Origin: a virus
Taxonomy: Duplodnaviria; Caudoviricetes
Virus record (IMG/VR): IMGVR_UViG_3300021399_000103
Coordinates: 1-64,000 of that record
Reading direction: 5' to 3' (one strand)
Length of the DNA: 64,000 bases
Positions 15,710 to 64,000 of this stretch are shown here, one piece after another; position 1 is the stretch's first letter; every line of letters starts with the position of its first letter. The position numbers and the translations under genes are program-made. The notes beneath the pieces were generated by a model that saw nothing but the letters and a program-made list of their open reading frames with translations, was not told the origin of the DNA and made no database searches.

Positions 15710-16786
15710 GTGACTAAATTAGATTATAGTTTGAACTCTCCAGAAGAAAGACTTCAAGTAGTAAATCAAATCTTAGAAGAAAACCCCGACCCAGATCCTT
15801 ACTACCTAGAAATCCTAGCCGATTATTTAGTCTTCTGTATGGAGAAAGAGGAGAAAAAGGAGAAAAAAATTCTTACCGAAAATCGCTTAGCTACAGTAAA
15901 TAAAAGAGAAACATCTTATGAAGGATTAGTCTCTCAATTTGAGAATGGAGAGGATGGCGTCTATAATATAACTAACAATGATAAACACGTAATATTTCAG
16001 CCAAAGATTTCAATAACAGCAAAAGATAGAAAAGACATACCAGAATTACAACAAACCGACGAATCAATAAAATTTTGAGATAATCAAGTGCGCCATTCGG
16101 AAGGCAAAGATGCGTTTATTGCGAAAAAGGCTCTTATCGAAACTCGTAAAGACCAATATGTAATAAAACAAGCTATGAAGCCACCTGTACAAGCTTCCCA
16201 CTTAGTCCACTCAGAACATCATATTGAGTTCCCTGAAGAAATCTCATTTGACGAGGAGGGATATCCAGTAGCTACGGGGGTATCTTTAATGAATCCTACA
16301 ATTTGTTCTATTATACTTTGTAACTACTCAAAATTAAAGGAACGTAGTTGAGGCGATTTTTTTAGTGATACTTGATATCTCATGGAAGAATTTGATAAAG
16401 TATCTATGCGCGCGCTCGCTAAGTATCCCCTCTATTACCGCATTGTAGAGTGTAAAATAGACGGACTTCAAAACGCAGAGATACGTGATATTTTAGAAGA
16501 AGAATTTGGTATTAAGCATAGCTTAGAATACATCTCATCTTTATGGCGTAAAAAAATTCCTGGCTTAATAGCCTCCGCCGCAGAAGATGAATATCTTGAT
16601 TCTTATTATCTAAATGAAGAAAAAGGCAAATATAAAAGATGCAGCCGTTGCGGCCAGATTAAATTGGCTCACAACAAGTATTTCAGTAAAAATAAAACCA
16701 GTAAAGATGGCTTTTATAGCATTTGTAAAGAATGTCGTAATAAAAAAGTTAAAAAAATTGAACCTCCTTCGGTCAGAAAACTTTAA
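15710..16786 (+). CDS. HTH + C-terminal Zn-finger protein (358 aa, TGA=Trp)
   Basis: Three track ORFs in one frame joined by TGA. CSRC...CKEC motif. Confidence 0.75.
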
Positions 16787-16827
16787 TTACTGATTAAATA
16801 CATTAGAGTATAATAGGAGGATATTTT

Positions 16828-18078
16828 ATGGAAAAAGAAATAAGCAAAAAAGATTTAATCTATTGCGAAAAATGTCATAAAACTTTAAAGCGTGGCGAAT
16901 TTTATCAATCAAATAATTTAGAAAAATATCCAGATGGCGGGACTATCCCAATTTGTAAAAAATGTTTAACGATGCATGTAGACAATTGAGATCCAGCAAC
17001 ATTTACTCCTATCTTAAAAGAAGTGGATGTCCCATATATTCCAGAAGAATGAAATAAACTTCTTGAATCTTATGGACAAGATAGACGTAAAGTAACCGGA
17101 ATGACTATTCTTGGCCGCTACCTATCTAAAATGAAGCTCAAACAGTTCAAAGATTATCGTTGAAAAGATACTGAATTTCTTCAAGAGTTAGCTGAAAAGC
17201 GTTTGCGCGAGACCCTTGAGCGTCAAGGTAAAGACATTCAAGAAATTACCTTGGCATTAGAAGAACAAAAAGCAGTAATGCCAGAAAAGACATTTGAGGA
17301 AGTAGTGTTTGCGGCTGGCGATGAACCGACCGGATTCACCACGATGGAGTTGAGCGAACCAGCGAAAACCGCAGATGACTTAGGTTTAACTGAAGAAGAT
17401 ATTACCTACTTAAAACTTAAATGGGGAAAAGCGTATAAACCAGAAGAGTGAGTTCAGTTAGAACAATATTATAATGATTTTATGGAATCTTATGATATTC
17501 AGACTGCTGGACATAAAGATACTCTTAAGAAGCTCGCTAAAACATCCTTAAAATTAGACCAACTTATTGATTTGGGTGATGTCGATGGTGCACAAAAAAT
17601 GCAGAAAATGTATGATAGCTTAATGAAAAGTGGTAAGTTTACCGCTGCGCAAAATAAAGGTGAAAATGGCGAAGCGGTTGATTCAATTTCTGAACTTGTT
17701 ATGATGTGCGAAAAAGATGGATTTATTCCTCGATATTACGTAGATCAGCCAAAAGATAAAGTGGATAGAGTATTACAGGATTTACAAAACTATACTAAAT
17801 CTTTGATTACTGAAGAAACTAATATCGGAAATCTTATTGAAAATGCAGTCAAACAAATTGAAGAAGATAAACGTCGTGAAGCAGAAACAGATGCGGACGC
17901 AGCGAGCGATGAAGATATTCTTGAAGATGCATTATTTAGCGATGATATTAATTATATAGCAGATGGAGAGTTTGAGGAATTTGGCAAATTTGAAGATGAA
18001 TTAGAGAAAACCGATGAAGATTTACTTCAAAATTTAACAGATGAGGATTTTTTAAGAGATCTTAGGAAAGGAAGGTAA
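16828..18078 (+). CDS. Zn-finger protein, putative terminase small subunit (416 aa, TGA=Trp)
   Basis: GGAGG RBS, CEKC...CKKC, four in-frame TGA, directly upstream of TerL. Confidence 0.55.
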
Positions 18079-18080
18079 AT

Positions 18081-19853
18081 ATGGCTTTACAAGATTTACT
18101 AAGACTTTCACAAGACCATAAAAAGATTGGCCTTTCTGAGGAAAGAGTTGAAGCAATAAAGCCTCAAGTACGACAATATATAGCATTTTGGCGAGAGTAT
18201 CCAGATATGTTTGTGGATTTTCTGCAAACGGGAAGAGATGGGACAATTCCAGAGAATGGTCTCAAATTTTTCTTTTATCAACGAGTGTTCTTACGTGCGG
18301 CGATGCGATATAAATATGTATACATGGTATTCCCACGTGCGTATTCTAAATCATTCTTATCAGTGCTTGTATTAATGTGCCGCTGTGTGCTATACCCAAG
18401 AGCTAAATTATTTGTTACTTCTGGAGGTAAAGAACAGGCTGCGGGCATTGTTAAAGAGAAAGTAAACGAAATTTGTACTCTTGTTCCAGCTTTTGAAAGA
18501 GAACTGGATCGACGTCCTGGAAAAACAAGAGAAGGAAAAGATTACGTTTGCTATATGTTTAAGAATGGTTCATTCTTTGATAATATTGCGGCGAGTGAGA
18601 AATCAAGAGGTAAGAGACGTCATGGAGGATTAGTAGAAGAGTGCGTAGGCGTTGATGGAACGATCTTATCAGAAGTTATTATTCCAACAATGAACGTTTC
18701 AAGACTTTGTATGGATGGTTCAACACACCCAGAAGAAACATTAAATAAGAGTCAGATCTTCGTAACTACCGCAGGCTATAAAAACACCTTTGCTTATGAT
18801 AAGTTAATCCAGTTCTTAGTATGAATGGTGACAGAGCCTGAGAAAGCTATAATTATGGGTGGTACCTTCCGCATCCCTGTATTAACTGGACTATTGGATA
18901 AAACATTTATTCAAGACTTAAAACGAGATGGTACGTTTAATGAAGCTTCATTTGAACGTGAATATGAATCAAGATGAAGTGGAACGGTTGAAGATGCGTT
19001 CTTTAATGGAGAAGCATTTGATAGAAACCGCGCATTACAAAAACCGGAATATGAACATTCTGGACGTTCAAGTTTACAAAGCTATTATGTATTATCAATG
19101 GACGTTGCTAGAAAGAATACTGGTAAAGATGGATGTGATAGCGTTATAACTGTCTTTAAGGTAATTCCACAAAACTATGGAGAGGTTTCAATAAAATCTC
19201 TTGTTAATTTATATACATTAACCAATATGCATTTTGAAGACCAAGCTATTTGAGCAAAGCGTTTATTCTATAAATATAAAGCAAGACGTATTGTAATTGA
19301 TGCTAATGGTCTTGGTATTGGTTTAGTTGATTATATGGTAAAACGTCAAACAGATCCTCTAACTGGGGATGAATATCCTGATTTTGGAGTTGAAAATGAT
19401 GATGAAGGATACTACAAAAGATTTAAGACTGCGGATACTGAACAAGAAGCAATGTATTTAATAAAAGCAAATGCGCCGATTAATACAGAAGCACATTCTA
19501 ATGTTCAAACACAACTTACTTCTGGAAAATTAAAATTCTTAATTGACGAACGTGTTGCTAAAAATAAATTATTAGGAACACAAAAAGGAAAACAAATGAC
19601 ACCAGAAGAAAGGGCAGAGTACTTAAAACCATATACCTTAACTTCTATATTAAAAGAGGAGATGTTAAACCTTCGTGAAGAAAATGAAGGTATTAATATT
19701 ATTCTAAAACAAGCTAATCGTGGTATTAGAAAAGATAAATTTTCAGCTTTTGAATATGGATTATATTATATCAAACAAGTTGAAGATAGTAAGAAAAAGA
19801 AACGTAAAAGATTTAATGCGGCAGAATGAAGATTTAGTTCGCATATAGGATAA
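18081..19853 (+). CDS. terL: terminase large subunit (590 aa, TGA=Trp)
   Basis: Walker A-like PRAYSKS, Walker B GLVEE, TTAG motif; nuclease SMDVAR / IDANGLG / KDKFSA. Confidence 0.9.
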
Positions 19854-19863
19854 GGAGATAATT

Positions 19864-20223
19864 ATGAGAGCAAGTAGAGGAGAAATAAAAATAGAAGAGA
19901 TTTTAAGAGAAGCCGGGTTAAATTTTAAGATGGAATTATCTTTTGAAGGTTTGAATAGTTCTAATGGACGACCATTGCGTTTTGACTTTGCGGTTTTTGA
20001 TGATGAGGGTAAAATAGACTTTTTAATTGAATATCAAGGACGACAGCATTATGAGCCAAGTAGTAAGTTTGGTGGTAAAAAAGGGCTTTATCAGCAGCAA
20101 TTTAATGATGCGAAAAAGCGCAGATTTTGTCAATTGCATGATATTAAACTAATAGAAATTCCATATACTGATGAAAATATTCTGGACTACGATTATATAA
20201 TTAATAGAGCATATGGAAAATAA
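19864..20223 (+). CDS. Vsr/DUF559-like endonuclease
   Basis: FDF..IEYQGRQH..D..K...LIEIPY pattern. Confidence 0.75.
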   Translation: MRASRGEIKIEEILREAGLNFKMELSFEGLNSSNGRPLRFDFAVFDDEGKIDFLIEYQGRQHYEPSSKFGGKKGLYQQQFNDAKKRRFCQLHDIKLIEIPYTDENILDYDYIINRAYGK

Positions 20224-20235
20224 GGAGGTGGAGCT

Positions 20236-21849
20236 TTGGAAAACAAAGATAGACAAGAAGCTATTCGTAAAAAAGGCTTCGATATGAATGGCGCCGCTGA
20301 CTATAGTGAAACCACTGATTATGGTAAGATAAAAGTAGGACTAAAAACATTAGAAGATGCGATTATTGATCTTGGATTTTATAAAAAAGTAGAAGGTAGA
20401 AGATGTATTGATAAACGAGTAGTATTGCGTGCTATTATTGATAAAGATTATCGTGCTATTAGAGTAATTTCTGATTATTTTTATAGAACTAATGGTATTT
20501 ATCAAAGAATTGTTAATTACTATGCCACAATGTATCGTTGAGATTGGTATATTACCCCAACAATTTATGAAGAAAAAATATTGGAAAGTGATAAAGAATG
20601 CTTAAAAATTACTAATGAATTTTTTAAGGCATTAGATTATTTAGATAATACACATATTAAAAAATTATGCGGAGATATTGCGCTTAAAGTAATTAAATAT
20701 GGCGTATGCTATGGCTATATTGTTGAAGGCGAAAATGGTGTTTTATTCCAAGAACTACCACCAGACTATTGTCGTTGTAGATATTATATAAATAATTTGC
20801 CGGCGATTGAATTTAACATGGCTTATTTTGATGAAAGATTTAGAGATATAAATTATAGAATGAGAGTTTTGAAAATGTTCCCTAAAGATTTTCAAAAAGG
20901 TTATTTGCTATATAAAGAAAGAAAACTACAACCTGATTTCCAAGGAGATATAGGAACTTGGTACTTACTTGATCCTGGATATGCGGTTAAATTTAGTTTA
21001 GCTGGTGCTGGTGATTTACCATTATTCTTTAATGTAATACCTTATTTACTTGACCTTGATGCAGCGCAAGATCTCGATCGCCGCAAACAAATGCAGGATT
21101 TGTTAAAAATTTTAGTACAGAAACTTCCAATAGACAAAAATGGCGATTTAATCTTTGATGTAGATGAAGCCAGAGATATTCATAATAATGCGGTTGCTAT
21201 GTTACAGCATTCTATTGGTGTTGATATTATTACAACATTTGCTGATATTGATTCTATTGACTTGTCAGATGCGCGAAACGTAGATAATGATGATCTTGAA
21301 AGAGTTGAGCGTACTGTCTATAATGCGGCAGGTGTTCCTAAGAATTTATTTAATTCAGATGGTAATATTGCCTTAAATAGTTCAATTTTACAAGATGAAG
21401 GCGTTATGCGTGACTTAAAGTTGCAATTTGAAATATTATTTGATACAATAATACAGAGAAGAATCAAGAATAAAAAGAAATATAATTTTAGATATTATAT
21501 CTTAGATACTACTCAATATAATTATAAAGATTTATCTAAAATGTATCTTGATGAAATGCGTACTGGTTATGGTAAGATGTTTGCGCAGATTGCTCTTGGA
21601 CATTCACAAAATTCTATTATGAGTACTGCTTATTTTGAGAACTCTGTATTAGGATTGAGTGAAATTATGATTCCACCTATGATGTCATCTACTATTGGTA
21701 GTGAAGATATTCAAAATTTGGGCAAAAAGAATAAATCTGCTAATGGCAATCAGCAAACTAATACAGAAGAGAATACTGGGGGTCGTCCTAAGAAGGAAGA
21801 AACCCAGGTTTCTGATAAAACTATAGCAAATAGAGAAAGTATGAAGTAG
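20236..21849 (+). CDS. portal protein (537 aa, TGA=Trp)
   Basis: Position after terL, size, C-terminal GGRP motif, one in-frame TGA. Confidence 0.8.
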
Positions 21850-21859
21850 GAGGAAAAAA

Positions 21860-23137
21860 ATGCATAACAGTGTAGCAATAGATTCTCCTATTGAAATTAT
21901 TGATGTTTCACCTACTGTGAGTCCTCTTATTTCAAAAGTACAAATTAAAGTTTGTTATGTTGGCGATGAGCCAAATCGCAATGGTAGTGTTATCACAAAA
22001 GCTGTTGCGAAAGAAATGGGAGAGACTCTCAGAGGTTGCCCTATCGTTGGGTTTTATAATGAAAACACTGGCGATTTTGAAGGGCATAATCAAAGCATTG
22101 ATATTCGTAGTGGAGAGTGGTATTTTAAGGATACAACACAACCTTACGGTTTTGTAGATTTAAATGCCAAAGTATGGTTTCAAAAATTTGTTGATGATGG
22201 TGTTGAGCATGAATATCTTATGACAGAAGGATATATATGATCAGAACAGTTTCCAGAAACAAAGCGTATTTTGACAAAAGGAAACAATCAATCAATGGAA
22301 TTACATGAACCTACATTAAAAGGATTTTGGTCAGAAGATGATAATGAAAAACCAAGTTTCTTCATTATTAATGAAGCAATAATCTCTAAACTTTGTATTT
22401 TAGGTGAAGATGTTGAACCTTGCTTCGAGGGTTCTCAGATTACAAAAGTACAATTCTCATTTGAACCTTCATTCCAAGAAAAGATTTTATCTATGATGGA
22501 AAAGGTTACAGAGATGACAAAAGAAGGAGGGACAGATTCTGTGGAAGAAGTAAAAACACCAGAAATGGAAGAAGAAGTTTTAGATAACGAAGAAGATAAA
22601 CCAGAAGAAGAAGCTCCTGCAGAACCTGAAGTTGAAGAAACTCCAGAAGAAGAAGCAGAAGAAGCTCCAGCTGAGTCTGAAGAAGAACCTCAGGAAGACG
22701 AGCAGCCTGAAGAAGAAAAAAATGAGGACGAAAGCGTTAAATATAATCTTGATGATATTCAAGAATATAGAGAACTAAAGTCTAACTATGAAGAGTTACA
22801 GACTAAGTTCGAAACTATGAAAGCTGAATATGATACTCTTGTAGAATTTAAGAAAGTTGCGGATCGTAAAGAAAAGCAAGCTATGATTGATCGTTTCTAC
22901 ATGCTATCAGAAGAAGATAAGAAAGATGTTATCACAAATATTGATACTTATAGTGTCGATGATATCGAAGCAAAGCTTTCTGTAATTTGTGTTCGTAACA
23001 AGGTTAGTTTTGATCTTGAAGATGATGATAAAGAAGAGAAACCAACAATCTTCAATCTTGAAGAACAAGAAATTGAAGATGATATGGTACCTGCTTGGAT
23101 CAAAGCTGCTATGGCTACGAAAAAAGAGATGGAATAA
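21860..23137 (+). CDS. prohead protease/scaffold (425 aa, TGA=Trp)
   Basis: NRNGS..PIVG..QSME N-terminal domain, acidic linker and coiled coil. Confidence 0.75.
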
Positions 23138-23154
23138 TAGGAGGAAGACAATAA

Positions 23155-23880
23155 ATGGCTAAGACAAGATTAAGTGAAAAAGCCACATATGTCGCTCGCG
23201 GCTATGGTCAGGTTGAACCAAACCACCTTTCAGCTCAAAAGACTGCACAAATCTATGCTCAATTACCAGCAGCTGCTGATATTAAGATCTTAGAAAATGG
23301 TCAGTTCGCAACATATAACTATGCTGCAGATGATGGTGGAGCAGTCGACTTTGAAGGCGCTGGCGAATGGATGATGGTCTTTAATGAGATCAAGCTATAT
23401 CGTGACTTTGAACAGGATTGCGATTTCGCAATGAAAAAAGAAGATTATGTTGCTCGTGTATACAGCCCAATTGATGGCACACAGCCTTTAACAGAATGGC
23501 AAGCTCGTTTCTACGGAGCTAAAGATGGCAATGGTAATGATAATGCTGAACGTGTTACAAAACCAGCTAGTCCTTACGAAGTAGATTCTACAGATGATCC
23601 ATTCCATGTAGTTGAAAATTACAAGAAACCAAAATATATGCCAGAAGGAACACGTATGGTTCCACGTCTTTTCAAGATTAATATTGGCGATATTTGGACA
23701 ACAAATACAATTAAGGCAGAACCAGGTAGTCTTAAGGTTGGTATGATGCTCACACCTGATGCAGATGGCTACTTAAAAGTCGGAGAAGGCGCAGATGCTC
23801 TTCATCCAACAATGCAGATTGTTAAGGTTTATACAATGCCTGATATGCAGCCTGGCGTAAAAGTTATGCGCGTTAAATAA
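23155..23880 (+). CDS. capsid decoration/cement protein
   Basis: Between scaffold and MCP; highly biased codons; no TGA. Confidence 0.6.
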   Translation: MAKTRLSEKATYVARGYGQVEPNHLSAQKTAQIYAQLPAAADIKILENGQFATYNYAADDGGAVDFEGAGEWMMVFNEIKLYRDFEQDCDFAMKKEDYVARVYSPIDGTQPLTEWQARFYGAKDGNGNDNAERVTKPASPYEVDSTDDPFHVVENYKKPKYMPEGTRMVPRLFKINIGDIWTTNTIKAEPGSLKVGMMLTPDADGYLKVGEGADALHPTMQIVKVYTMPDMQPGVKVMRVK

Positions 23881-23899
23881 TAAGAAAGGAGTATAGGAA

Positions 23900-25042
23900 A
23901 TGTTAGATAAGAAAAATTTTATTGCATTAGCTAAAACTGTAGCTAAAGCTGACCCTAAAGCTCCAACTGCGTATAGCTATGGCGGTCAGAATTTCAGTTA
24001 CGCTGAATTAAATGAAACTCTTCGCAATGAGTTTAAAGAAATTGCTGGAACATACCAGTTATATCGTGAAAATAAAAACTTAGTATTCTCTATTATTGAA
24101 GAAACATTAAATGATGTTCTTCCACAGAGAGTCGTACAGAACTATGGTCAGTTTGCAGAAGTTAAAACTTTTGCTCAGGGCGATAGACCAATGTTCCGTA
24201 GAAAGATCGATGGCACAAATCGTGCTAAGCAGTTCATTACAAGAGTAGGACTTGCAGGTAACTATGAAGTCTTCAAGCTTGCTAAGACTTCTGAAAGCTT
24301 TGAAGTACCAACAAGTGCTATTGGCGGAGCAGCTCAGATCGGATTCGAAGAATTCCTTGATGGTCGTGCTGATTTTGCTGAACTTACAAATATCGTAATG
24401 GAAGGTATGGATGACCTTGTTTACGAAGAAATTGGTAAGGCTCTTGAAGGCGCTATCAATCAGCTTCCTGCAATGAACCGTGTTGTTACAAATGGCTTTG
24501 ACGCAGCTTCATTCGATGAACTTGTTCGTCTTGCTGAATCATATGGTAATGTAACAATTTATTGTACAAATGAATTTGCTGTTAAGATGATCCCTCAAGA
24601 AGCTTGGAGATATACAGAAGCAATGAAGGATGAACTTTACAGAACAGGTCGTTTAAGTGGATATAGAGATAAGAATGTAGTTATTCTTCCTAACGCTTAT
24701 AAAGACATTATTGAAGGTAAAGAAAAGGTTATCGATCCTTCATTCTGCTGGATCATTCCATCTGGCGCAGATATGAAACCAGTTAAGGTTGCTTTCGAAG
24801 GCGACACTCTTGTTGATGAAAGAGCTAATCGTGACTGGAGCCGTGAAATCCAGGTATATAAGAAAGTTGGCGTAGTTTGCATGATGAACAATGCAATGTG
24901 CGTTTATAAAGATACATCCTTATCTAAGGAAGGTGCTTTCCAACTCAAGGATACAGTTCAGAATGTTGTTACAGTTGACAATGCGTCTGATTTCCAAAGC
25001 GGCGCAGATGATAATCAAGGTGGTAACGGCCAACAGGGGTAG
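23900..25042 (+). CDS. major capsid protein
   Basis: 380 aa, synteny, high-expression codon bias. Confidence 0.85.
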   Translation: MLDKKNFIALAKTVAKADPKAPTAYSYGGQNFSYAELNETLRNEFKEIAGTYQLYRENKNLVFSIIEETLNDVLPQRVVQNYGQFAEVKTFAQGDRPMFRRKIDGTNRAKQFITRVGLAGNYEVFKLAKTSESFEVPTSAIGGAAQIGFEEFLDGRADFAELTNIVMEGMDDLVYEEIGKALEGAINQLPAMNRVVTNGFDAASFDELVRLAESYGNVTIYCTNEFAVKMIPQEAWRYTEAMKDELYRTGRLSGYRDKNVVILPNAYKDIIEGKEKVIDPSFCWIIPSGADMKPVKVAFEGDTLVDERANRDWSREIQVYKKVGVVCMMNNAMCVYKDTSLSKEGAFQLKDTVQNVVTVDNASDFQSGADDNQGGNGQQG

Positions 25043-25449
25043 CAACAACAACGGTTAGTAAGTTGGCCACTCTTCCATCATGGGACGCCAGCTATGATAG
25101 CATGGTAGTCAATAATGGGGCCGTTGAGGTTGAACAAAGTGGTACTTCCATTGTCATCAAAGGTAAACTTGAAGACTTAGTTACATTCCCATCTTCTAAT
25201 GCAGCTCAAGGAGAGCATAAGTGGATTGGATTAGATATTGATACGGGTCTCGATACAATCGTTGGTGCTACATGGAATGGCGCTGAATTAACAGATGCTG
25301 ACGTAGAGGAAGCAGCTGGATTAGGTCTTGGAGCAGGACATATTGTATTCTGGACTAAGGCAGAAACAATCGCTACAACACCAGCAACAATTACAATTGG
25401 CGCCGGAGGTGAAAGTGTTACATTAACAGTAGCATTTGAAGAAAACTAA
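25039..25449 (+). CDS. beta-rich (Ig-like) domain, probably fused to MCP by -1 frameshift
   Basis: The -1 frame is open across the MCP stop, and there is no RBS before the TTG at 25063. Confidence 0.6.
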   Translation, partial: VATTTVSKLATLPSWDASYDSMVVNNGAVEVEQSGTSIVIKGKLEDLVTFPSSNAAQGEHKWIGLDIDTGLDTIVGATWNGAELTDADVEEAAGLGLGAGHIVFWTKAETIATTPATITIGAGGESVTLTVAFEEN

Positions 25450-25463
25450 ATATTTAAAAGTTA

Positions 25464-25500
25464 AAGGGGAGTAGGGGTAAATCCCCTCTCCCCTTATTTT
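25464..25500 (+). terminator. intrinsic terminator
   Basis: AAGGGGAG..GGGG/CCCC..CTCCCCTT followed by a T run. Confidence 0.75.
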
Positions 25501-25531
25501 CATTAAATGGGAGAAAAAGGAGATAATTAAA

Positions 25532-26110
25532 ATGGCAGAATTAGTAACAGTTGAAAATAGAACAGCTGGTAAAATTGTATATCAGATTCCAGATAGACAC
25601 ATTCGTAGAGAGCTTGCGCCAAGGCAGTCCATTAGAGTACCAAAAGAAGAAGTAGAAGCTCTTTCTTATACTGCTGGTGGCCTTGACTTAATCAGAAACC
25701 ACCTCTTGGTAAAAGATGAAGAAGTTTTAGATGAATTAAATATTCATAGAGAACCTGAGTATTATATGAATGCTGATAATGTCGCAAAACTTATTAGAGA
25801 AGGAAGTTTAAATGAATTTAAGGATGCTCTTGACTTTGCTCCAGATGGAGTTAAAGATATGATTAAAGATTTAAGTGTTCAGATGCCTTTAAATGATTTT
25901 TCTAAGAGACAGGCTCTTAAAGAAATGACTGGATTTGATGTTGATGCAGCAATTCAACACGATAAAGAAAATAAGACTATTGAGGGCGATGAGGCACCTG
26001 CGGCCGCAGCTCCAAAGACACGTAGAGTTCAGACTACAGCGCGTAGGAGCACTGGTGGTGTAGCAGCAGAGGCGGTTGCCGCAAACAAGCCTAAGATTAT
26101 TAAAAAATAA
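25532..26110 (+). CDS. hypothetical virion-associated protein
   Basis: 192-aa ORF with AAGGAG RBS. Confidence 0.7.
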   Translation: MAELVTVENRTAGKIVYQIPDRHIRRELAPRQSIRVPKEEVEALSYTAGGLDLIRNHLLVKDEEVLDELNIHREPEYYMNADNVAKLIREGSLNEFKDALDFAPDGVKDMIKDLSVQMPLNDFSKRQALKEMTGFDVDAAIQHDKENKTIEGDEAPAAAAPKTRRVQTTARRSTGGVAAEAVAANKPKIIKK

Positions 26111-26135
26111 TGTTTAGAAGAAAGGAGAGTATATT

Positions 26136-26732: not shown

Positions 26733-27015
26733 TATTCCAGAGAAAAGTTTTAAATCTGATATAGATAGATTAACAAATCAACTCTGGAAATTAATACCCA
26801 TGAAAGAGAATGAAGAGAATTGATTAGAACAATTAAATACTGTTATTATTGAAATTAGAGGATTATCAGAGATATTTGCTTCAAATGATAAATTTTTAAT
26901 TCTTTTAAGTAAATTAGAGGGATTAAAGATTTCAGAGGATTTAGAATTTTCTACTTATAGAAAAACAGTATTTGAATCAATTTCTTTATTAAGGGAGATG
27001 CTTAATGTCATATAG
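26698..27015 (+). CDS. hypothetical protein (~105 aa, TGA=Trp)
   Basis: Absent from the track; open except for one TGA. Confidence 0.65.
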
Positions 27016-29356: not shown

Positions 29357-30415
29357 ATGAAATATGGTGTTCGTGACGTCGTTGACGTTGTACTTAGAGC
29401 CAAGGGTACAATGGATTTAGGAAACAAACGTTTCTATAAGAATGAACCTGTATTATATTTTGATACGCTTACTACTTCAACATTAGAGGGTGCTTCTACT
29501 ACTGTTTATGCTAATGGTGGTAAAGGTAATGCTCGTTTGATGGCGTGGGAAGGTGAACGTACAGTTACTTTCACAATGGAAGATGCATTGATTTCTCCAG
29601 AAAGTTTATCTGTATTAACAGGTGCTGGCTTAATCGAAGCTACTGAAGATAAGCCTATTTATCAGCATATTGTTGAAACAACTGATGAATTACCAATCGC
29701 TTCTGGTGATACTTATACAATTTATGTTGATAAAGAACCATTCTTACCTACTCCAGATAGTGGAGTTGTTGAAAATGAAAACTACGCTTGTGTAATGTTT
29801 ACAAAAGATGGTGAAGTTATTTCTGAACCTTATATTATTGATCAGAATGTTGCAGAAGTTAAAGCTGAAGAATCTGGCGATCATGTTGGAAAATATGCAA
29901 TGGTAATTAATAAACATCAGTGTAATTTTGGTGAAAATTGCCACGAAACAAGAGATGAATATAATCCAACAAATGTTTCAAAAGATATGCCACTTGCTAA
30001 TGGTATTTTAATTGATTATTATACACCAGTTCGTTCTGGCGCAAAACAGATTGAGATTGATGCTGAAAAGTTCGCTGGTTCTTACTATCTTGAAGGCTCA
30101 ACACTTTGGAGAGATACAAATGGTGTAGACCATCCAGCAGAATTTATTATTCCTAACTGTAAGATTCAGTCTGCATTCACATTTACAATGGCTGCTACTG
30201 GTGATCCAAGTACATTCACATTTACAATGGATGCATTCCCAGATTATACAAGATTTGACAAGAGTCACAAAGTATTTGCAGTAATTCAGGTTATTGAAGG
30301 TGCTACAACAGCTTCTGATGCTAATAACGATCTACACCGTGGTCGCACATGGCATGGTGGAGAATCATATGCTGATGAACTAGCTGGCGGTGCATATGAT
30401 AACCATGATAACTAG
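29357..30415 (+). CDS. major tail tube protein
   Basis: GGKGNARL.AW..ERTVTFTMEDA...GDPSTFTF; codon bias; no TGA. Confidence 0.75.
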   Translation: MKYGVRDVVDVVLRAKGTMDLGNKRFYKNEPVLYFDTLTTSTLEGASTTVYANGGKGNARLMAWEGERTVTFTMEDALISPESLSVLTGAGLIEATEDKPIYQHIVETTDELPIASGDTYTIYVDKEPFLPTPDSGVVENENYACVMFTKDGEVISEPYIIDQNVAEVKAEESGDHVGKYAMVINKHQCNFGENCHETRDEYNPTNVSKDMPLANGILIDYYTPVRSGAKQIEIDAEKFAGSYYLEGSTLWRDTNGVDHPAEFIIPNCKIQSAFTFTMAATGDPSTFTFTMDAFPDYTRFDKSHKVFAVIQVIEGATTASDANNDLHRGRTWHGGESYADELAGGAYDNHDN

Positions 30416-35400: not shown

Positions 35401-38400
35401 TTGATTCAAAAAAAGATGCTATTAATCAATTAATTGAAGGAACCACAGAATGAAAAGAGGCTATTGCTGATTCTAACTCAGAGTTATTAGCAGCATTAGA
35501 AATGTCTGGTCAATTAAGTCAAGCGAAATTATCTTATGGTAAAGGTGGATTAATAAGTGTTGATAATGCAGATGAATTAAAATCAAATGCTCGTTCTGAT
35601 AATATTGCGGCTGATATAGGGGTTGCGCTATCTAGAATAAATGTTTCAAATGAAGAGAGTAATCATGCGTTAATAGAAGCAGTAAATGAAATAAGAAATT
35701 TAAATGATCATGAAGCGTATCAACGTGGGGATATTTCTTATGACCAATTAATAGATTATAATAAAACTATTGGTAGACAATCAGATGAAGAATTATTAAA
35801 TACAGTCAAAGATTGAGCGCAACAAATTGTTGACAATGGATACGCAGGTCAAGATTTAACTAGAGAACTTATTGAAGATAGCAACGGTCAATTGGCTTTT
35901 TTAGAAGAAATTAAAGACAGAAAAGATGTTCTTCAAGCAATTCAAAAAGCTGCTGATCAAATAGCTGGTGCTGATAAAGAATCAGATGCTTATAAAAAAG
36001 AAGTTGGGCGAATGGCTGCAGATTCAGCCGGATATGATACGTCAGGAATGTCTGGTTCAGCTTTAGAAAATTTTTATTTAAAATTATATGAAAACCTACA
36101 ATCTCAAGCTCAAACTGAATGGGAGGGGATGGATCAAAATCAGCAATTAAAATATTTTGCTGAAGGATCTGGTGGTCAATATAAATATGATGAAGCTACT
36201 AGTGAATTAATAGAAACTGCATCTAGTAAAATTGTTGAAAGTTCTGAAATTGCTCAAAGTGAAATTAAAACTCTTGGACAGGCAGCTTTGATTGAAGAAA
36301 AGGCGAGTGCTGCTGAAGCTCAAGACTTAATAAAATATGAGACAGAGTCAATAAAAAAACAACAGCAAGATCTTTATTCTAAAGTTAGTAATAATTTTGG
36401 TGACCAACTGACAATAGAAAATGCATCTACTTATTCAGATAAAATGGATCAATGATCTAGTGAGCAGATGAATTTTGCAATTCAAACAGATATGTCTCAG
36501 TTTGAAACAATCGAAGAATTTATTAAATATGTTGAAGATGCATGTAAAGAAGAGCATCATATTGATTTTGAAGTTAATGCAGATGATTTAGTTAATTTTA
36601 AAGGAAAAACAGAAGATCTTAAAGCTGAGGTCGATACTTTATCTCATTTTTTACAAAATAATATAGATAAATTTCAAGATTTGAGCGAGCATATTGTAGA
36701 ATGTAAAGAGGCCGCTGATAAAGTAGCTTATTCATTTTTAAGATTTGATGATGCTATGCAAGATGTTTCTAAAAATTATAAAAAATGGAAAAAAGCTCTA
36801 GATAGTGGAGATGTTATAGAAATGAATAATGCTGTTCAGGATTTAAAGAAAACATACGGGAATTTATTGGACATGGATGGATCGCAATTATCCGATGATT
36901 TTCTACGAGATTCAAAAAATTTAGATTTAATGAATACAGTATTAACAGGAACAGAAGAAGAGGCTATAGCGGCATATGAAGAATTACAAAAAATAGCTTT
37001 TATGGATTTGGGAGAAAATTTAATTCCAAATCTTGATGAAAGTAAATGAGAAGAAGCTTATAATACAGTTACAGATGTTGTGGATAGATTAAACTTAAAA
37101 TTAGGTGATCCTTTGACTCCAATGAATGGTGTTGATTATACAAATACTGTTAATTCATTAAATGAAATGTTGGCAGCCGTTGGAGATGATATAGATGCAG
37201 CAAATGCTATCATGGCAGCATCTGGCTGATCAGGAGAATTAACAGATCAACCAGTAGATGTTGAAGAGCCTGATTTTAAAGAAGATGTAAATGTTGATGT
37301 AGTTGAAAAAGATATTCCATATGAAGGTGTTCATGTTGAAACTACAGATACTGATTTTACTCCAAGCACAACTGGAACTGTAAATGGTACCGCTTCAGAA
37401 GTTCATTTTTCAAAAGGTGCGCAGACAACGACTCAAAATAAAAAAACTGCTCATGTTCAAGCATATCAAATAAAATCAGATTCAGCACTTCATTATACTG
37501 GAGGAGCTGCCCCAAAAATAAAAAGCATGCCAGCACGAAACCTTGGATCTGGAAATGGCGGTAAAAAAGGCGGAGGCTGTTTTGCTTCTGGAACTTTAAT
37601 TACTACAAATCATAATTATAAAAATATTGAAGATGTCAAAATTGGAGACATTGTTTTATCGTATAATGAAAAAACTAAAAAGAATGAATATAGTAAGGTT
37701 CTTCAAACTATGATTCATAATGTATATGAAAAAATCTATAGTTTATTTGTTAAAAACGATAAACTTAAAGTCACTGGCAACCATAGATTTTTGGTAATTC
37801 ATAATAATGAACAAAAATGAATTGAAGCTGCTGATTTACAAGTTGGTGATTTAGTATTATTTGCTAATGGTTCATTACATCAAATTTCTAAAATTGATAC
37901 GCAATTAAGGTTTATGACCGTATACAATTTTGAAGTTTCTAATACTCATAATTATTATGTTGGAGAAAATCAAATATTAGCACATAATAAAGGCAAGAGT
38001 GGTAGCTCTAAAGAAAAAAAGAAAAAAGTAGAAAAGCCAAAAGAGAAGAAAGAAAATATTAAAGAAAAAGATCGTTATCACAATATTAAAGAAGCTATTG
38101 AAGATTTAAATACTGAAATGGATAGACTTAATAAAAATAAAGATCGAGCTTATGGTAAGCAACGTCTTAAATATATGGATGACGAAATTAAAAAGACTAA
38201 AGATCAAATTGGTTTGACTAAAAAATATATTGCAGAAATAAAGAATTATTCAAAAGTAGATAGAAAAAATCTTGAAGATGCGTTAGGTAAAGGTTGGACA
38301 GATATTAATACAGGAGAATTGGTTGGTGGTCTTGGTCTTTCTGATGAAGAGATTAAAAGTGCCTTTGATGAAAAAGGCATTTTGAAAGATTATGAAAGTT

Positions 38401-54481: not shown

Positions 54482-54496
54482 GGAGGAATTGGGATA

Positions 54497-54835
54497 ATGG
54501 CAAAAAAGATAGCTCAATTTTACTATAAATCAGATAATGCTAATGAGAGAAATCGTCCATCTGGCGCAACAAAAGCAGCTTTTATTGATGGAACTATTTT
54601 TGCAGATGTTTTTCCGATTTCTCAGTTGGGTATCCAAGGATTACCAGGAACAAAATTTTATTTAAATGGTAATATTAATCCTATTGTAATAGGAGCTTCT
54701 GGCATTTATGATTTAGATATTAAAAATGGAGCCAGAGTTACTGATTTAAGTTTTGCTGCAAATTCAATGAATAATATTGATAACAGTAATTCTGGATATT
54801 TAATAGTAGATGTTTTATATGGAGAGGAGGATTAA
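54497..54835 (+). CDS. small tail-associated protein
   Basis: QLGIQGLPGTKFYLN motif; GGAGG RBS. Confidence 0.65.
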   Translation: MAKKIAQFYYKSDNANERNRPSGATKAAFIDGTIFADVFPISQLGIQGLPGTKFYLNGNINPIVIGASGIYDLDIKNGARVTDLSFAANSMNNIDNSNSGYLIVDVLYGEED

Positions 54836-54838
54836 AAT

Positions 54839-57800: not shown

Positions 57801-60544
57801 TCACCTTAAAGCCAGATGAAAATACTGGAGATATAGATTATTATTATCATCCAGGTTATTCTATTATTAATGGCAGAAGTGCTAATGACATATATAAAAG
57901 AGAAAATATAGCTGATTTGACTAAAGAGCAAGGTAGAACTAGAATTGAATTAGGTCAGTATTTTAAAATAACATCTCAATCAGAATCTTTTGTTTATTTT
58001 GACCCTCAAGAAAATTATTATTATAAAGATGATTTTGGAAATTACTTAAAAGAAAATAACGCTGCACTTAAAGAGAGTGGACAAACTTTGGCAATAACAT
58101 ATTATAAATTAATGCAATTTATAAAATTAGATGATGGATATAATATATTTATTCCTAATATGTATCGCGAAGTTCAATTGGATGCTAATGGAAAACCTGT
58201 GCTTGATACAAATGGTAATATAATTTCAACGCCTATTGAAAATTACGACGATATTAGAGGTAATAAAAAATATCAAGTATATGAAGATTTGTATATTAAA
58301 CCTGGGGAAAATGGTGCGCCAGCAGATAAAAATGAGATATTTGCGGCAGGTGCAAAATGGAATATGAATGTAACTTCTATTCCAAAAGCTCAGGATGGCA
58401 GTAATGCTTTAACTTTAAGTAGAAAAACAAATACTTGAGAAGCTAGAGAATTAAAGGATTTTGGTAATGTTTTAAATACTATTAATGGTTTAATTGTTAG
58501 AATTAATCAGAAATTAGCCGATGGTGATATGATAACAAGAGACCAGAGAACAGTTCAAGGTGCTATTAATACATTAAATGATATAATTGCTAAATTTAGT
58601 ATATTAATTCCAGGTGAATTTGCTATGGTTGATACTTATGGTAGAGTTCACAGTGGAGATTGAGATAGTAAGCAAAAGTTTAGTTATAGCAATATTGGAA
58701 ATCCAAATGCGGGCTCGGATATTCCGGACGGTGAACCGGTTGCCGCAGACAATGAACGTTGGTTAAAATTAACTACAACTTCTGGAGAAGCTACTGACTT
58801 TAAACCACACATTAAATTAGAACATACATTTAATGCAGTCGCTGATACAACCACAACAGCAAATAAAAATATCGCAACAGGAACTGGTTTAAATAAAGGT
58901 ATTGGAGATACTTTATCATTGTATACTCCAATAGTAGATAATACTGGACACGTAGTTGGTAAGAATACAGAAACTGTTACATTACCTTATGGATTTAAAA
59001 CTATTTCTACAAATGGCAGAAACAGTAATAATAATAAGATTGCCTTAGCGGCACAAGATGATATAATTGCGGACAATACTCAAGATACTCTTGGAATTAA
59101 CTCAGGTAATGAATGGATTAAGATTGAAACAAATCCTAGTACAGATGTAATTACAATTAGTCATGATGTAAAAAATGTTTCAAGTAGTGAAAGTAGCTTA
59201 AATTTATCAACAGAAATTTCTGGAACAACTACATTCGATATTCCAACTTATACATTTGATGCAACTAATCATTATTCTAGTCATGATACGAAAACATTAA
59301 CAATGCCAAATAGCTATGGTAAATTCACTGGTGATACTGGTAGTAGCGAAGCTACTGCCACACATGATACATTCAGTATTACTGGTGATACATGAGTGAC
59401 TACTGCGGCAAGTGCAGACCAAATTAGTTTAGCACATAGTGCGCCTCATGAAAAAGCGCACGCAACAGTTGCTAATGAAACTCCAAATTTCGGCAGTACA
59501 TTTACTATTAAAGATCTTGATTTTGATAATAAAGGGCATAAAGCAAATGAGGGAACTCATACAGTAACCATTCCGCAATCTAGCTTGGTAACAGATGGTT
59601 TAGGTAATGTTATGACGGGTTTATCTTTAGTACCATCTACTGGAGTATTTACCCAAAATCGAGCACTTGTTGGTTCATTAGATTTAACTGGATATAATGC
59701 AAATGAAACAAATCCATTAATTACTGCAAGTGATACTATTAATGGAGCCTTTAAGAAAATTGAAACGGTTTTAGATAATAGTAATACTACTGTTAACACT
59801 AGAATTAATAATTTTAAAGGTACTTCTGCTGATGTAAATGATTCTACGGTATATGGTATTGTTAATAGTTCAAAAAATTCTTTAATTGGTAATATAGGAG
59901 ATAGTTGAAATGGAGCAACTCCAGCGTATACTTTATACGGATTAAAAGATTATATTGATCAAGCAGTAGCGGATCAATTAAATGAAGGAATTAGATTTTC
60001 TTCTCATATTTGAGGAGTACAAGCTTTCTATAATTCAACAGAAAATCAAGTGATTTCTGTTTCAGATCAAAATTTAGATAATGCCATAGTGCCTGTTTCT
60101 ATTTTAAATGAAAAAAGTTTAACTTATGGTGCTATTAATGGTAATTGTGAAGATTATTCACTTTCTTCAGATAATTCAAATTTAACTGGAATTAAGGTTA
60201 ATGAATCTGGATTATATAGAGTTCAAGCTTGTGCTGCAGTAAAAACACAAAGTACTGCTTCAAATTTAATAAATGGTGTAAAAGTATGAGTAATGAAAAT
60301 TAATGCAAATGGTGGAAGTAAAGAAAAAATTATTTCTATTACAGAATCATTGGAAAATTCTGCAACATCAACATTAAATGCGACTTATGCTACTTCTAGT
60401 AAATTAACTCAATTGAATGCAGGAGATGTTATTTATTTAGCAGTAACTCATGTTAATAGTACAGGTGCTTCTATAAATATATTAGCAGATAATGATACAT
60501 ATATATTATTAGAAAAACTTGATGGAGAATTAGTCCAAGCTTAA
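54839..60544 (+). CDS. large tail fibre / receptor-binding protein (~1901 aa, TGA=Trp)
   Basis: Ten same-frame fragments; D..GH fibre repeats; C-terminal C1q/BclA-like domain (ESGLYRV...LNAGDVIYL). Confidence 0.7.
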
Positions 60545-60571
60545 GGAGGAGAATAATCTCCTCCTTTTTTT
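60543..60571 (+). terminator. intrinsic terminator
   Basis: AAGGAGGAGA-ATAA-TCTCCTCCTT followed by a T run. Confidence 0.75.
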
Positions 60572-60637
60572 AAGGACGAATTACATTAAAATTATATAAT
60601 TATTTTTTAAATAATACGAATAAAGGAGGGTAAGGGC

Positions 60638-61492
60638 ATGGCAGTAAATTATGTCAAATTTATGCGTGGTACACAAGCATTATATAGTAGCCTTGGTACA
60701 AAAGATCAAGATGCTCTGTATTTTGTATATGATAATGTGAATGATGATCACGGTAAATTATACCTTGGAAATAAATTAATTTCTGGCTCTTCTTCTAATC
60801 CAAGTGGGGATATTTCTCTTTCAGATATTCAAGATATCTTATTTGATAATAATTTAGCAGATGGAGATTTCCTTGTATATGATGAAGCAGAAGGAAAATG
60901 AGTAAATAAACCTTTTGCTGAAGCATTAAATGTTCCGATTATGGTTGGCGCAACTGCATCTGCGGACGGAGTGGCTGGCTTAGTTCCAGTACCAGTAGTA
61001 GGTGATCAATTAAAATTTTTGCGAGGAGATGGAACTTGAGCGACAGTAACAGGAGAATTATCTCAACAAGATAAAGCTGATATTAATCAGCTTAAAACAC
61101 AAGTAACAACTTTAATTGGCAACGATCCAAATAAGTCTGTATCTACTATAGTTTTTGAAAAAGTTGCAGAATTATTAATTCCAGAAGACGCCCAAGAAAG
61201 TTTAGATACTTTACAAGAGATTGCTGATTGAATTCAGGATCATCCACATGATGCTGCAGAAATTAATTCTAATATTTCTATATTACAAACAAAAATTGGT
61301 AATTTAGAAGATATTATTAATGGAACAGATACAACAGAGGGATTAGAGGCAAGAGTTTCTAGTCTTGAAACTACAATGGGAACTTTTACTCCAGTAGAAG
61401 GAAGCTATTTGGATGTAAGTTCCGCAATTACTTATTTGAATAATTCAGTCACTGAAATGAATGATCGTTTAAGATGGCATGAATTAGGATAA
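60638..61492 (+). CDS. tail fibre-like protein (284 aa, TGA=Trp)
   Basis: GLVPVP..FLRGDGT-W(TGA) and DTLQEIAD-W(TGA)-I motifs. Confidence 0.72.
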
Positions 61493-61521
61493 TAAGTTTT
61501 TAATAGAAAGGAGGAAAGAAA

Positions 61522-63195
61522 ATGGCTTTCAATCTAATTAATTTTAAAAAAGGTACTTTGGCTCGTCTTAATGAATTAAAGACACAAAGCGGCATTGAAG
61601 AAGGCACATTTTATTTAACGATTGATGAAAATAAAGAAACCAGTAGACTATATATTGGTACTAGTACAACAACGGCTTTACCAGTTAATAGTAATATTGT
61701 TACAGTAACAAATCAATCAGAATTAAATAATACATTAAGCGCAACTCCATTTAATGATGGTGATTTTGCTTATGTAACTAATGGAAATATTTTAGCTGTT
61801 AAAATTGGTAATCAATGGAGACAAATTAATACACCTCCATCAAGTTCAGATTATAAATTTTTAACTTCAGCTGATTATAGTATAGATACATCAAATGGTG
61901 TAGCTACAATTACTTGGACAGGATACAGATCTGATAACGACGAAGTTACAGCAGATATGACTGTTACTGGAACAAATGGTGTTACTGTTAGTAGTTCTGG
62001 AACCGCGCTGACAATCAGTGGAGATCCTGCGACATTAGCTTCTACAGCAGTAAATAGTTCAAATGCAACAACTATCTCATTAAGTTCTACTGGAAATACT
62101 GCAAGTGGATCTATTGCTGTTTCAGGTGGTAATAATATTACTTTAGAAGGAGCAGCAAATAACATTAGAATTTCTGCTCAAGATACAACCAATTCTTCAT
62201 TAACAGTGACAAATGCTTCAAATGGCTTTAATATTACTGTTCAAGATAGCAACAATGATGAAGTAAGTGGTACACTTAATCCAACTATCACTTATTTGAC
62301 AAATGAAGCTGGTACAACTACAGCGAATGTGACATTCCAGAATGGAATAGCTGCGCTTGATGTTTATTCAAAAGATGAAATCAATCGTAGATTAAAAGCA
62401 CTTGATGGAATGACCTATAAGGGAACTGTTGGTGCACAAGGATCTGCGGCAACTACTATTAGTGGAATTTCTAATGTTAGTATTGGAGATACATATAAAG
62501 TAGTTAGTGACCTCTCAAGCATTCCTATTAAAGCGCCTGGAAGTAGTACTATTACAACTACTGGTACGGCTAAATTAGGCGACTTATTAATTGCCAATGG
62601 TACAGAAACAAATGGTGTAATTACTTCTGGTTTGTATTATGATATCATTCCAGCTGGCGATGATTTAATGCAAACTTATTCAGTTGTAAGTGATACTTAT
62701 GGTATCAAAATTCATGATGATGTCACAAATGATGATATTGGTGGCATTAAACTTGCAGCAGGGAAACAAATTGCATTATCTGACTCTGGAACTAATGAAA
62801 AGACAGTTACAGTTGCTCATGCAGATATATCATCAGCTACAAATGGTAATCCTACAACTGCTACAAAAATTACTCAATCAGAAAATACTCCTTTAACAAT
62901 TAATGCCGTTACTGGTTTAACTACTAATAATGGACATGTTACAGGTATTACTATTACTCCTTATGAAGTTCAAGATACAAATGCAGCTTTAACAGAATTC
63001 TCTGAATCTGTTACAGCAGGAACTGGTAATAATGCAGGTAAAATAGCTACAATTACTACAAATGCGACTTTGACTTCTGGCGCAAATACTCCAGATCCGC
63101 ATTCAGCTTCATTTAGTTTGGCATCTGATAATTTAGCAGTTACTGCACCAACAAGCAGTCAAGTAAAAGTTAATTTCGTTTGGGATACATTCTAA
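61522..63195 (+). CDS. Thr/Ser-rich beta-structured virion protein (fibre-like)
   Basis: 557-aa ORF with no TGA. Confidence 0.7.
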   Translation: MAFNLINFKKGTLARLNELKTQSGIEEGTFYLTIDENKETSRLYIGTSTTTALPVNSNIVTVTNQSELNNTLSATPFNDGDFAYVTNGNILAVKIGNQWRQINTPPSSSDYKFLTSADYSIDTSNGVATITWTGYRSDNDEVTADMTVTGTNGVTVSSSGTALTISGDPATLASTAVNSSNATTISLSSTGNTASGSIAVSGGNNITLEGAANNIRISAQDTTNSSLTVTNASNGFNITVQDSNNDEVSGTLNPTITYLTNEAGTTTANVTFQNGIAALDVYSKDEINRRLKALDGMTYKGTVGAQGSAATTISGISNVSIGDTYKVVSDLSSIPIKAPGSSTITTTGTAKLGDLLIANGTETNGVITSGLYYDIIPAGDDLMQTYSVVSDTYGIKIHDDVTNDDIGGIKLAAGKQIALSDSGTNEKTVTVAHADISSATNGNPTTATKITQSENTPLTINAVTGLTTNNGHVTGITITPYEVQDTNAALTEFSESVTAGTGNNAGKIATITTNATLTSGANTPDPHSASFSLASDNLAVTAPTSSQVKVNFVWDTF

Positions 63196-63250
63196 GGACA
63201 AAAATCGTTAATAAATAATCCATATCCTTTATGTTAGTTAGAGGATATCT

Positions 63251-63287
63251 AATTGGGAAAGGGGTTATCCTCTTTCCCAATTTTTTT
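63251..63287 (+). terminator. hairpin/terminator
   Basis: AATTGGGAAAGGGG/CCTCTTTCCCAATT followed by a T run. Confidence 0.65.
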
Positions 63288-63316
63288 ATATAAAAAGGAA
63301 AGAAAGGAGAAAATAT

Positions 63317-64000
63317 ATGGCTGATAAAATAAAGTTCTGACCTATTAGGGGTACAGAAGCACAAATTTTAGATGAGAACATATGTCCATATTATGATGGT
63401 AAAATCTATTTTGCGACAGATACAAATAAAATTTATCTTGATGCAAATGGAACTAAACATTTAATGGGCGGTGGTAGTTCTGGAATTGTTTATGCCAATG
63501 GTTCTGATACTCAAATAGTAAAAACTTCAGCAGATGAGACGGATTTTGGATATACAATTGCTTTAGATGCATTGGATAATCCATTAGTTTCTCCAAAAGA
63601 AGATGATTTAATCTTAAATTCTGATGGAAGATTCTTTAGAGTTACAGGTTATAATTCTTCAACTCAGTCAATTAGTGTTATATTGCTTGCGGTTAGTGGC
63701 ACTGGAGAAGGTGGAGGCGGTGGTTCGTCATTTAAAAGAAGATTTACAATAAATCTTGAAAAACCTAATCCATCAACATTAATTAATGGGCAGAATTTTA
63801 GAATTTATTTTACTGTTAATTCTGCAATTGATGCTAATGATTTTGTGTTAGATGAAGAATTTGTTGTTTATATAACATTAGCTGAAAAAGTTGCCGGAAC
63901 ATCGAATAGTTATATTAATTATTATTCTAGTCAAAAGGATGTTGCAAATGAAACTCGTTCTTACTTTGACATTAGTGAATTTTTAAGAGAATCTACAACA
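63317..64000 (+). CDS. large structural protein, 5' part (truncated by window, TGA=Trp)
   Basis: GAAAGGAG RBS; MADKIKF-W-PIRGTE..GKIYFATDT; open to the window end. Confidence 0.7.

Follow-up and report, generated by a model that had tools for sequence, protein, structure and literature searches.

The window analysed here, the first 64,000 nucleotides of a single 176,419-bp IMG/VR virus record (IMGVR_UViG_3300021399_000103; CheckV 94%), raises the question of how the codon TGA is read by the phage to which it belongs, as the plus-strand late genes that begin at position 15,710 are whole only if TGA is a sense codon, while several minus-strand early genes end in it. An earlier reading made from the letters and open reading frames (ORFs) of the window, referred to below as the sequence-only reading, had proposed that TGA encodes Trp in the late arm, and there alone, and that a code switch gates morphogenesis in a standard-code host. 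Analysis of the full record supports, with good confidence, the reading that TGA specifies Trp in the late genes of a genome with two codes, that the host probably uses the standard code, and that the code would be switched late in infection by way of a spliced suppressor tRNA. A late-gene code switch of TGA to Trp has already been described, and this phage is a well-supported further example.

TGA in the late genes and in the rest of the genome

Under genetic code 4, ORFs follow one another without a gap on the plus strand from 15,710, among them ones of 2905, 2055, 1223, 920 and 1901 amino acids (aa), whereas under code 11 the same frames break into fragments of 100-440 aa. Within the window this row comprises 29 ORFs and 15,595 codons, with 128 in-frame TGA versus 56 TGG and at least one TGA in 17 of the ORFs. 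Over the whole late arm (15.7-96.7 kb, plus strand) the figures are 240 TGA and 124 TGG in 49 ORFs of 26,362 codons, with TGA present in 33 of them; annotation under code 11 fragments more than half of the late genes of this phage. When ORFs of 150 aa or more are counted, code 4 lifts the coding coverage across 16-96 kb to 0.8-0.99, from 0.2-0.6 under code 11, and leaves it unchanged at 104-120 kb; reading TAG as sense brings no gain in ORF coverage. The statement of the sequence-only reading that the late genes end in TAA or TAG is correct, but this follows by construction once TGA is taken as sense; the continuity of these genes is truly supported because standard-code homologues align straight across the TGA sites. 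The four motifs in which TGA had been placed at a conserved Trp were all located with TGA at the claimed residue: the HINT motif (37,818), in agreement with a PT-HINT domain found by Pfam at residues 1727-1856 of the tape measure protein, LRGDGT-X (61,019), IGG-X (46,533 and 46,785) and EIAD-X-I (61,217).

The residue encoded by TGA was examined by tblastn against five annotated relatives, with TGA masked as X so as to be neutral to the alignment. Trp is the commonest residue opposite TGA (11, 14, 9 and 7 sites across the four closer relatives), and Gly is found opposite TGA at 4 aligned sites versus 41 for Trp among the five; the rest of the spectrum (Y, F, L) resembles that at TGG sites. The TGA sites at 17,050, 22,238, 26,487, 26,821 and 27,296 correspond to Trp in every aligned relative, as does the site at 18,975 in the large terminase (TerL) in four of the five. 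In ten further relatives, drawn from contigs of metagenome-assembled genomes (MAGs) in GTDB, the codon opposite TGA is mostly TGG and rarely one for Gly, with 9-23 TGG opposite the TGA of this phage per contig among the seven longer ones (50-73% identity). Three close relatives (contigs L027, L033 and L034) exchange TGA and TGG with the phage either way, as expected of synonymous codons. With TGA counted, the Trp content of the late proteins is 1.38%, versus 1.52% in the standard-code arm. The assignment of TGA to Trp is borne out by these comparisons.

The dual code within one genome also stands, with TGA read as Trp in the late arm and the standard code in the replication arm, but the proposed confinement of recoding to the late arm holds only within the window, as five genes of the opposite arm are recoded elsewhere in the genome (Table 1). 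The standard-code arm (~70 kb) holds replication, nucleotide-metabolism and tRNA genes, in which Trp is written by TGG only. This minus-strand arm (97-168 kb) contains 81 ORFs with 17,946 codons, 273 of them TGG; 76 of the ORFs have no internal TGA, and the stops are 66 TAA, 12 TAG and 3 TGA, of which two belong to fragments of recoded genes and the third is directly followed by another stop. Recoding of the Mom-family gene inside this arm would therefore place a second regulated late function, beside lysis, behind the code switch. Not all of the late arm is recoded: its capsid core and tail-tube-like gene hold 13 TGG and no TGA between them (Fisher p = 5e-7). Recoding tracks function or timing, not strand arm. 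A SigA-like sigma factor (134,698-135,819) seemed to be a further recoded gene because its longest-ORF call is over-long; it was ruled out, as the two TGA lie upstream of the true start and its homologues measure 342 aa.

In the small-ORF region (1-15.7 kb) TGA serves as a stop. The five minus-strand early ORFs reported to end in TGA (5763, 7433, 8919, 9741 and 12677) do so, amounting to 5 of the 17 minus-strand ORFs of this region compared to 1 of 78 in the middle arm (Fisher p = 6e-4). The paralogs at 12677 and 13097 both finish in AEWQA, followed by TGA and TAG respectively as the sequence-only reading had noted, and the TAG of the second therefore marks the TGA of the first as a true C-terminus. 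The low-complexity or Lys-rich tails that read-through would add to early ORFs look non-coding. TGA is found in three states in this genome: a stop in the earliest genes, avoided in the middle and Trp in the late genes.

A split tRNA(UCA) gene and the decoding machinery

The sole tRNA of the window is a tRNA-Lys(CTT) at 3653-3726, in line with the earlier statement that no suppressor lies there; over the full genome a tRNA-Trp(UCA) is present outside the window. At default settings ARAGORN reports 28 tRNAs for 19 amino acids plus a transfer-messenger RNA (tmRNA) in the whole genome, and no Trp tRNA. With introns allowed it reports a tRNA(UCA) at 96,747-97,015 on the plus strand, directly after the last late ORF, and the gene is missed by default tRNA finders because it is split by a group I intron. 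Excision of the 196 nt at 96,781-96,976 yields a 73-nt tRNA whose minimum-energy fold is a perfect cloverleaf with the loop CUUCAAC, A1-U72 and G73, the last two being Trp identity features by the rule for E. coli tryptophanyl-tRNA synthetase (TrpRS).

The insert, placed after U34, matches the Rfam model Intron_gpI with 22.7 bits, short of the gathering score of 50 (search of 371 nt, E = 8.5e-4). It has a U.G splice-site pair in P1 plus a AAGAUAUAGUCC core and, by reading of the sequence, a GAAA-capped P9-like hairpin and a terminal G. Group I introns of the IC3 type occur in the anticodon loops of bacterial tRNAs, as in cyanobacterial tRNA-Leu(UAA) and Azoarcus tRNA-Ile. The phage intron shares with these its position, splice-site pair, core, hairpin, terminal G and length (~200 nt), but differs in its sub-threshold Rfam score and in that the tRNA that hosts it is an opal suppressor; self-splicing is predicted.

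Homologous split tRNA genes were sought by pattern scans of IMG/VR, and the same split tRNA(UCA) gene was found in four other viral contigs (L017, L019, L021 and L023). Two of these, L019 and L021, are TGA-recoded and have the same order of late arm, tRNA and then convergent recoded unknown and RuvC-like genes, and their tRNA shows a compensatory change of G2-C71 to U2-A71. No intron-less copy of the suppressor was detected in IMG/VR by a scan with the 3'-exon pattern. Five IC3-intron loci of IMG/VR were considered as amber suppressors and rejected: the two in which both exons are readable (L020 and L026) are tRNA-Arg(UCU) genes interrupted after U34 by a group I intron of IC3 type whose core is the same, and the other three (L016, L024 and L025) have the same 3' exon, their 5' exons not having been recovered. 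Intron-split tRNAs may be commoner in phages than default tRNA finders indicate. Phage tRNA introns were first reported for Lak phages (PMC6784885); no published description of an intron-split suppressor tRNA was found in a limited literature search, which does not in itself prove novelty.

The full-genome search for further decoding machinery found no RF-1 domain, no TrpRS-class enzyme and no SmpB. The ORF upstream of the suppressor (96,313-96,714) was considered for a part in translation and set aside, as it is weakly Hsp20-like with no evident link to such a role, and an Rfam tRNA at 141,483-141,555 was rejected as a Trp tRNA on account of its UCC loop and broken acceptor stem. Separately, a candidate non-canonical tRNA-Trp(CCA) lies in the tRNA array at 143,984-144,063 on the minus strand; this tRNA-like element has a perfect CUCCAAA (Trp CCA) anticodon arm, A1-U72 and G73, but a 21-nt GC hairpin in place of the D arm, and its Rfam tRNA score of 22.1 bits is sub-threshold.

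The first recoded gene, a proposed code switch and its alternatives

The late arm opens with a recoded gene for a putative sigma-like or helix-turn-helix (HTH) regulator (Table 1), assigned to PHROG 5767 'sigma factor' with E = 6e-50. Sequence searches of Pfam and PDB gave no match, the AlphaFold model is poor (predicted local distance difference test, pLDDT, of 64) and Foldseek found nothing, while VIA-align returned sub-threshold matches to sigma region-4 (Z 6.3-6.6) and HTH folds. In each of the five recoded relatives the orthologue of the regulator contains 2-7 recoded stops, and that of the standard-code relative has none; W123 is invariant. Promoters and terminators were located by consensus scans only; these place a perfect sigma-A-type promoter directly upstream of the gene, divergent from one serving the early ORFs, and its hexamers are conserved in L027, L031 and L036, which are relatives of both recoding types.

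A code switch that gates morphogenesis fits the distribution of the recoded genes. Early in infection, host ribosomes would stop at TGA and late-gene mRNA would then yield fragments only; as the spliced suppressor tRNA accumulates, TGA would be read as Trp, and the tail, packaging and lysis proteins would be completed. With a recoded sigma-like regulator behind a perfect host-type promoter, the switch may also sit upstream of late transcription. A two-step timer is conceivable on this basis, although doubtful, in which the regulator is already transcribed by host polymerase from the sigma-A promoter, group I self-splicing frees the sole UGA-decoding tRNA, and this in turn unlocks the sigma-like late regulator. 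If true, intron-hidden suppressors would explain the apparent lack of a suppressor tRNA in most TGA-recoded phages. Proteins with 23-24 TGA would need near-complete suppression against competition from release factor 2 (RF2), and the suppressor could possibly read the in-frame UGA of the host prfB frameshift site, leading to less RF2 synthesis. The intron-split suppressor and the recoded regulator offer testable handles on how and when the code flips and how RF2 is beaten.

Several points weigh against a late code switch in a standard-code host. Trp insertion at TGA and the timing of the switch are both inferred here from sequence, and among the literature examined metaproteomic validation exists for TAG=Gln only (PMC9523058). 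The analysis turned up no means by which RF2 would be overcome, and the base following in-frame TGA has no bias toward weak terminators (p = 0.53 versus all codons, 0.06 versus TGG). The sigma-like nature of the regulator is putative, resting on its PHROG label and the sub-threshold fold matches, and the recoding of its orthologues is suggestive but not statistically special, as most late ORFs carry TGA. The ORF set was picked longest-first with uncurated gene starts. The assignment of the host comes from MAG binning and distant homology, and the nearest standard-code relative, L028, lies in a MAG labelled Mycoplasmatota.

Among the alternatives, the one that survives best, although it too is rather unlikely, accepts that TGA is Trp but dispenses with a timing gate: once a UGA-reading tRNA had been gained, TGG would have drifted neutrally to TGA under AT pressure in genes translated while that tRNA is abundant, with purifying selection barring TGA from earlier-needed genes and from the highest-copy proteins. 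A genome G+C of ~31%, the free flipping of TGA and TGG between close relatives and the lack of context bias at TGA sites are all consistent with such drift, and the avoidance of TGA by the abundant capsid and tail-tube proteins suggests that suppression is costly rather than useful. It accounts less well for the enrichment of TGA in the endolysin, Mom-family and regulator genes, which might well be harmful to the phage if expressed early, and for the bias toward lysis genes, which is significant in independent clades (Borges et al., bioRxiv 10.1101/2021.08.26.457843); TGA and TAG lineages moreover converge on the same gene classes.

A second alternative, which is improbable, holds that the host itself uses code 4, being a Mycoplasmatota-like gut bacterium without RF2, such that TGA is Trp everywhere, the early stops are read through and the TGA-free arm is a recent acquisition from a standard-code phage. 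The family to which the head module belongs bears on this. Its members use the standard code (EF1, MT836163 and L028), TAG=Gln (phAss-1, L029-L032, L035 and L036, in which TAG lies mostly opposite Gln of the present phage) or TGA=Trp (the present phage, L027, L033 and L034). In a tree of the major capsid protein (MCP), midpoint-rooted with long outgroup branches and with L033 and L034 left out as too short (no rows were dropped afterwards), the TGA pair is sister to the standard-code L028 (support 99/100), and this clade is sister to a TAG-recoded clade (support 85/92), so that one traceable family has standard, TAG=Gln and TGA=Trp codes on neighbouring branches. The closeness of L028 by MCP and the Tenericutes/Mycoplasmatota label of its MAG favour a code-4 host, and, as the phage has tRNAs for nearly every amino acid, its tRNA-Trp(UCA) alone is no proof that the host lacks one. 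Yet L028 itself has no in-frame TGA in 19.5 kb, and the sister lineages recode TAG, which no code-4 host explains. The minus arm, at similarly low G+C, writes Trp with TGG and is free of internal TGA in 76 of its 81 ORFs, unlike phages of code-4 hosts of the Mycoplasma/Spiroplasma type, in which TGA is Trp throughout; the two early paralogs share their last residue although one stops with TGA and the other with TAG, and the read-through tails of the early ORFs look non-coding.

A standard-code host, as the sequence-only reading had implied, is considered probable from the TGA-free middle arm, the early TGA stops and the paralog ends, and it is probably a member of the Bacillota of the animal or human gut. 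Among cellular proteins, the nearest homologues of the SigA-like sigma factor are RpoD proteins from Oscillospiraceae and further Clostridia (46-50% identity), and the related contigs fall mostly in rumen and gut Bacillota MAGs; MAG binning is unreliable here, because relatives also fall in one Treponema and one Mycoplasmatota bin.

The weakest alternative, that TGA encodes another residue such as glycine (code 25, used by phages of Absconditabacteria and Gracilibacteria), is very hard to credit, as homologues show Gly, Lys or Arg opposite only a few of the TGA sites while Trp or TGG is by far the commonest partner with the remaining substitutions as at TGG sites, the UCA tRNA bears the Trp identity features A1-U72 and G73, and counting TGA as Trp gives a normal Trp content.

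Relatives, virion module and other features

The parallel drawn by the sequence-only reading to recoded gut phages is apt, as the architecture matches that of the Agate and Jade phages found in the guts of animals and humans. These phages use TGA=Trp mainly in structural and lysis genes and the standard code in replication genes; TGA has been lost as a stop, codes change rapidly among close relatives, and just 35% of the TGA-recoded genomes yielded a suppressor tRNA (Borges et al., bioRxiv 10.1101/2021.08.26.457843). The present phage is likened to them by architecture, with no clade assigned; it differs in that its suppressor is split by a group I intron, which was not found described by Borges et al., and in that its early region still keeps TGA stops. 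Its recoding favours structural and lysis genes and spares those of replication, the pattern of code-4 phages with late-gene-biased recoding. Zeta crAss-like phages such as Lera are alike in having TGA=Trp in structural, lysin and holin genes and a phage-encoded tRNA(UCA), with some genomes lacking a detectable suppressor (PMC12386605; Yutin et al. 2021, PMC7886860), but these are Crassvirales podophages of Bacteroidota, whereas the present phage has an unrelated SPbeta-like siphophage virion and is probably a phage of Bacillota.

A closer relationship exists to phAss-1 (proposed Phassvirus, Babkin et al. 2023, PMC10607447), a phage of human-gut origin with a homologous head, packaging and tail module (MCP 49% and TerL 45% identical). 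Common to both phages are a giant tape measure protein, many tRNA genes and recoded late genes; phAss-1 reads TAG as Gln and has three tRNA(CUA) genes (PMC10607447), in contrast to TGA as Trp and one intron-bearing tRNA(UCA) here. Other homologues of the virion module are found in the large siphophages of Firmicutes Enterococcus EF1 and Brevibacillus Sundance, the latter of which has SPbeta Yon/Yom-like genes, and the phage shares with SPbeta-like/phAss-like large siphophages a YonF-like terminase, portal, MCP and giant tape measure protein arranged in the same order. An exact repeat of 126 bp is found at both contig ends (bases 1-126 and 176,290-176,415), so the genome is closed and circularly permuted at ~176.3 kb, although the record is labelled linear, and the small ORFs of 168-176 kb therefore adjoin those of 1-15.7 kb. 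The phage is a complete, circularly permuted SPbeta-like/phAss-like siphophage from the gut or rumen.

Table 1. Features of the phage genome, in positions of the full record.
Feature	Position	Strand	Remarks
Early ORF, weak match to PHROG deoxyribonucleotidase family	5763..6170	-	Ends in TGA; read-through adds 52 low-complexity codons
Early ORF	7433..7873	-	Ends in TGA; read-through tail of 18 Lys-rich codons
Early ORF	8919..9134	-	Ends in TGA
Early ORF	9741..9929	-	Ends in TGA
Early ORF	12677..12886	-	Ends ...AEWQA, then TGA
Paralog of 12677 ORF	13097..13312	-	Ends ...AEWQA, then TAG
Divergent promoter for early ORFs	15655-15627	-	11/12
Sigma-A-type promoter, extended -10	15649..15678	+	Perfect 12/12, TTGACA-18-TG-TATAAT; directly 5' of first recoded gene
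Putative sigma-like/HTH regulator, C-terminal zinc ribbon	15710..16786	+	TGA at 16076, 16349, 16373
Conserved late protein phrog_3314	16828..18078	+	4 in-frame TGA; 17050 aligns with W in three relatives
Large terminase (YonF-like)	18081..19853	+	4 in-frame TGA; 18975 aligns with W in four relatives
Portal protein	20236..21849	+	1 in-frame TGA; PHROG 2739, E = 6e-79
Head core: scaffold-like ORF, major capsid protein (23900-25042), one more ORF	23155..25449	+	10 TGG, 0 TGA
Tail-tube-like virion structural protein	29357..30415	+	PHROG 2729; 3 TGG, 0 TGA
Tape measure protein, 2905 aa	32418..41135	+	23 in-frame TGA; PhageMin_Tail and PT-HINT domains
Tail protein, 2055 aa	41250..47417	+	24 TGA versus 3 TGG
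Two tail proteins, 1223 and 920 aa	48036..54481	+	17 and 14 in-frame TGA, respectively
Tail protein, 1901 aa	54839..60544	+	18 in-frame TGA
Tail-related protein	60638..61492	+	3 TGA, among them the LRGDGT-W and EIAD-W-I sites
Recoded ORF, 2600 aa, start portion	63317..64000	+	Continues to 71,119
Promoter	96,098-96,126		11/12; precedes TGA-free Hsp20-like ORF and tRNA
Bidirectional terminator	97,467-97,508
Recoded unknown gene	97,507-98,088		Opposite arm; 4 TGA
Recoded RuvC-like resolvase	98,143-98,670		Opposite arm; 4 TGA
Recoded GIY-YIG protein	119,667-120,635		Opposite arm; 2 TGA
Recoded Mom-family DNA-modification gene	123,288-124,430	-	Pfam PF25680, E = 2e-39; 6 TGA
Recoded Amidase_2 endolysin	130,578-131,234		Opposite arm; 7-9 TGA, 0 TGG

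The PT-HINT/intein-like domain in the middle of the tape measure protein (Pfam PF07591, E = 1e-14) spans 37,527-38,080 of the window. Several further RNA elements were observed. An initiator-type tRNA(CAU) at 153,632-153,704 on the minus strand, with a C1xA72 mismatch and three G-C pairs in the anticodon stem, is missed by ARAGORN at default settings and scores 40 bits in Rfam. The tmRNA (147,274-147,625, minus strand) scores 62 bits versus a gathering score of 47, and its tag as given by ARAGORN is unusual, at 25 residues. Within the tRNA array, a GOLLD-like large RNA (152,554-152,986, minus strand, which corresponds to L007:12554-12986) matches RF02032 over the full model length at 83.9 bits (E = 1e-20), which is below the gathering score of 150, and weak Rfam matches to YrlA (Y RNA-like) lie amid tRNAs on the minus strand at L007:1204-1273, 14094-14177 and 15244-15365, with scores of 24-29 bits versus a gathering score of 69.

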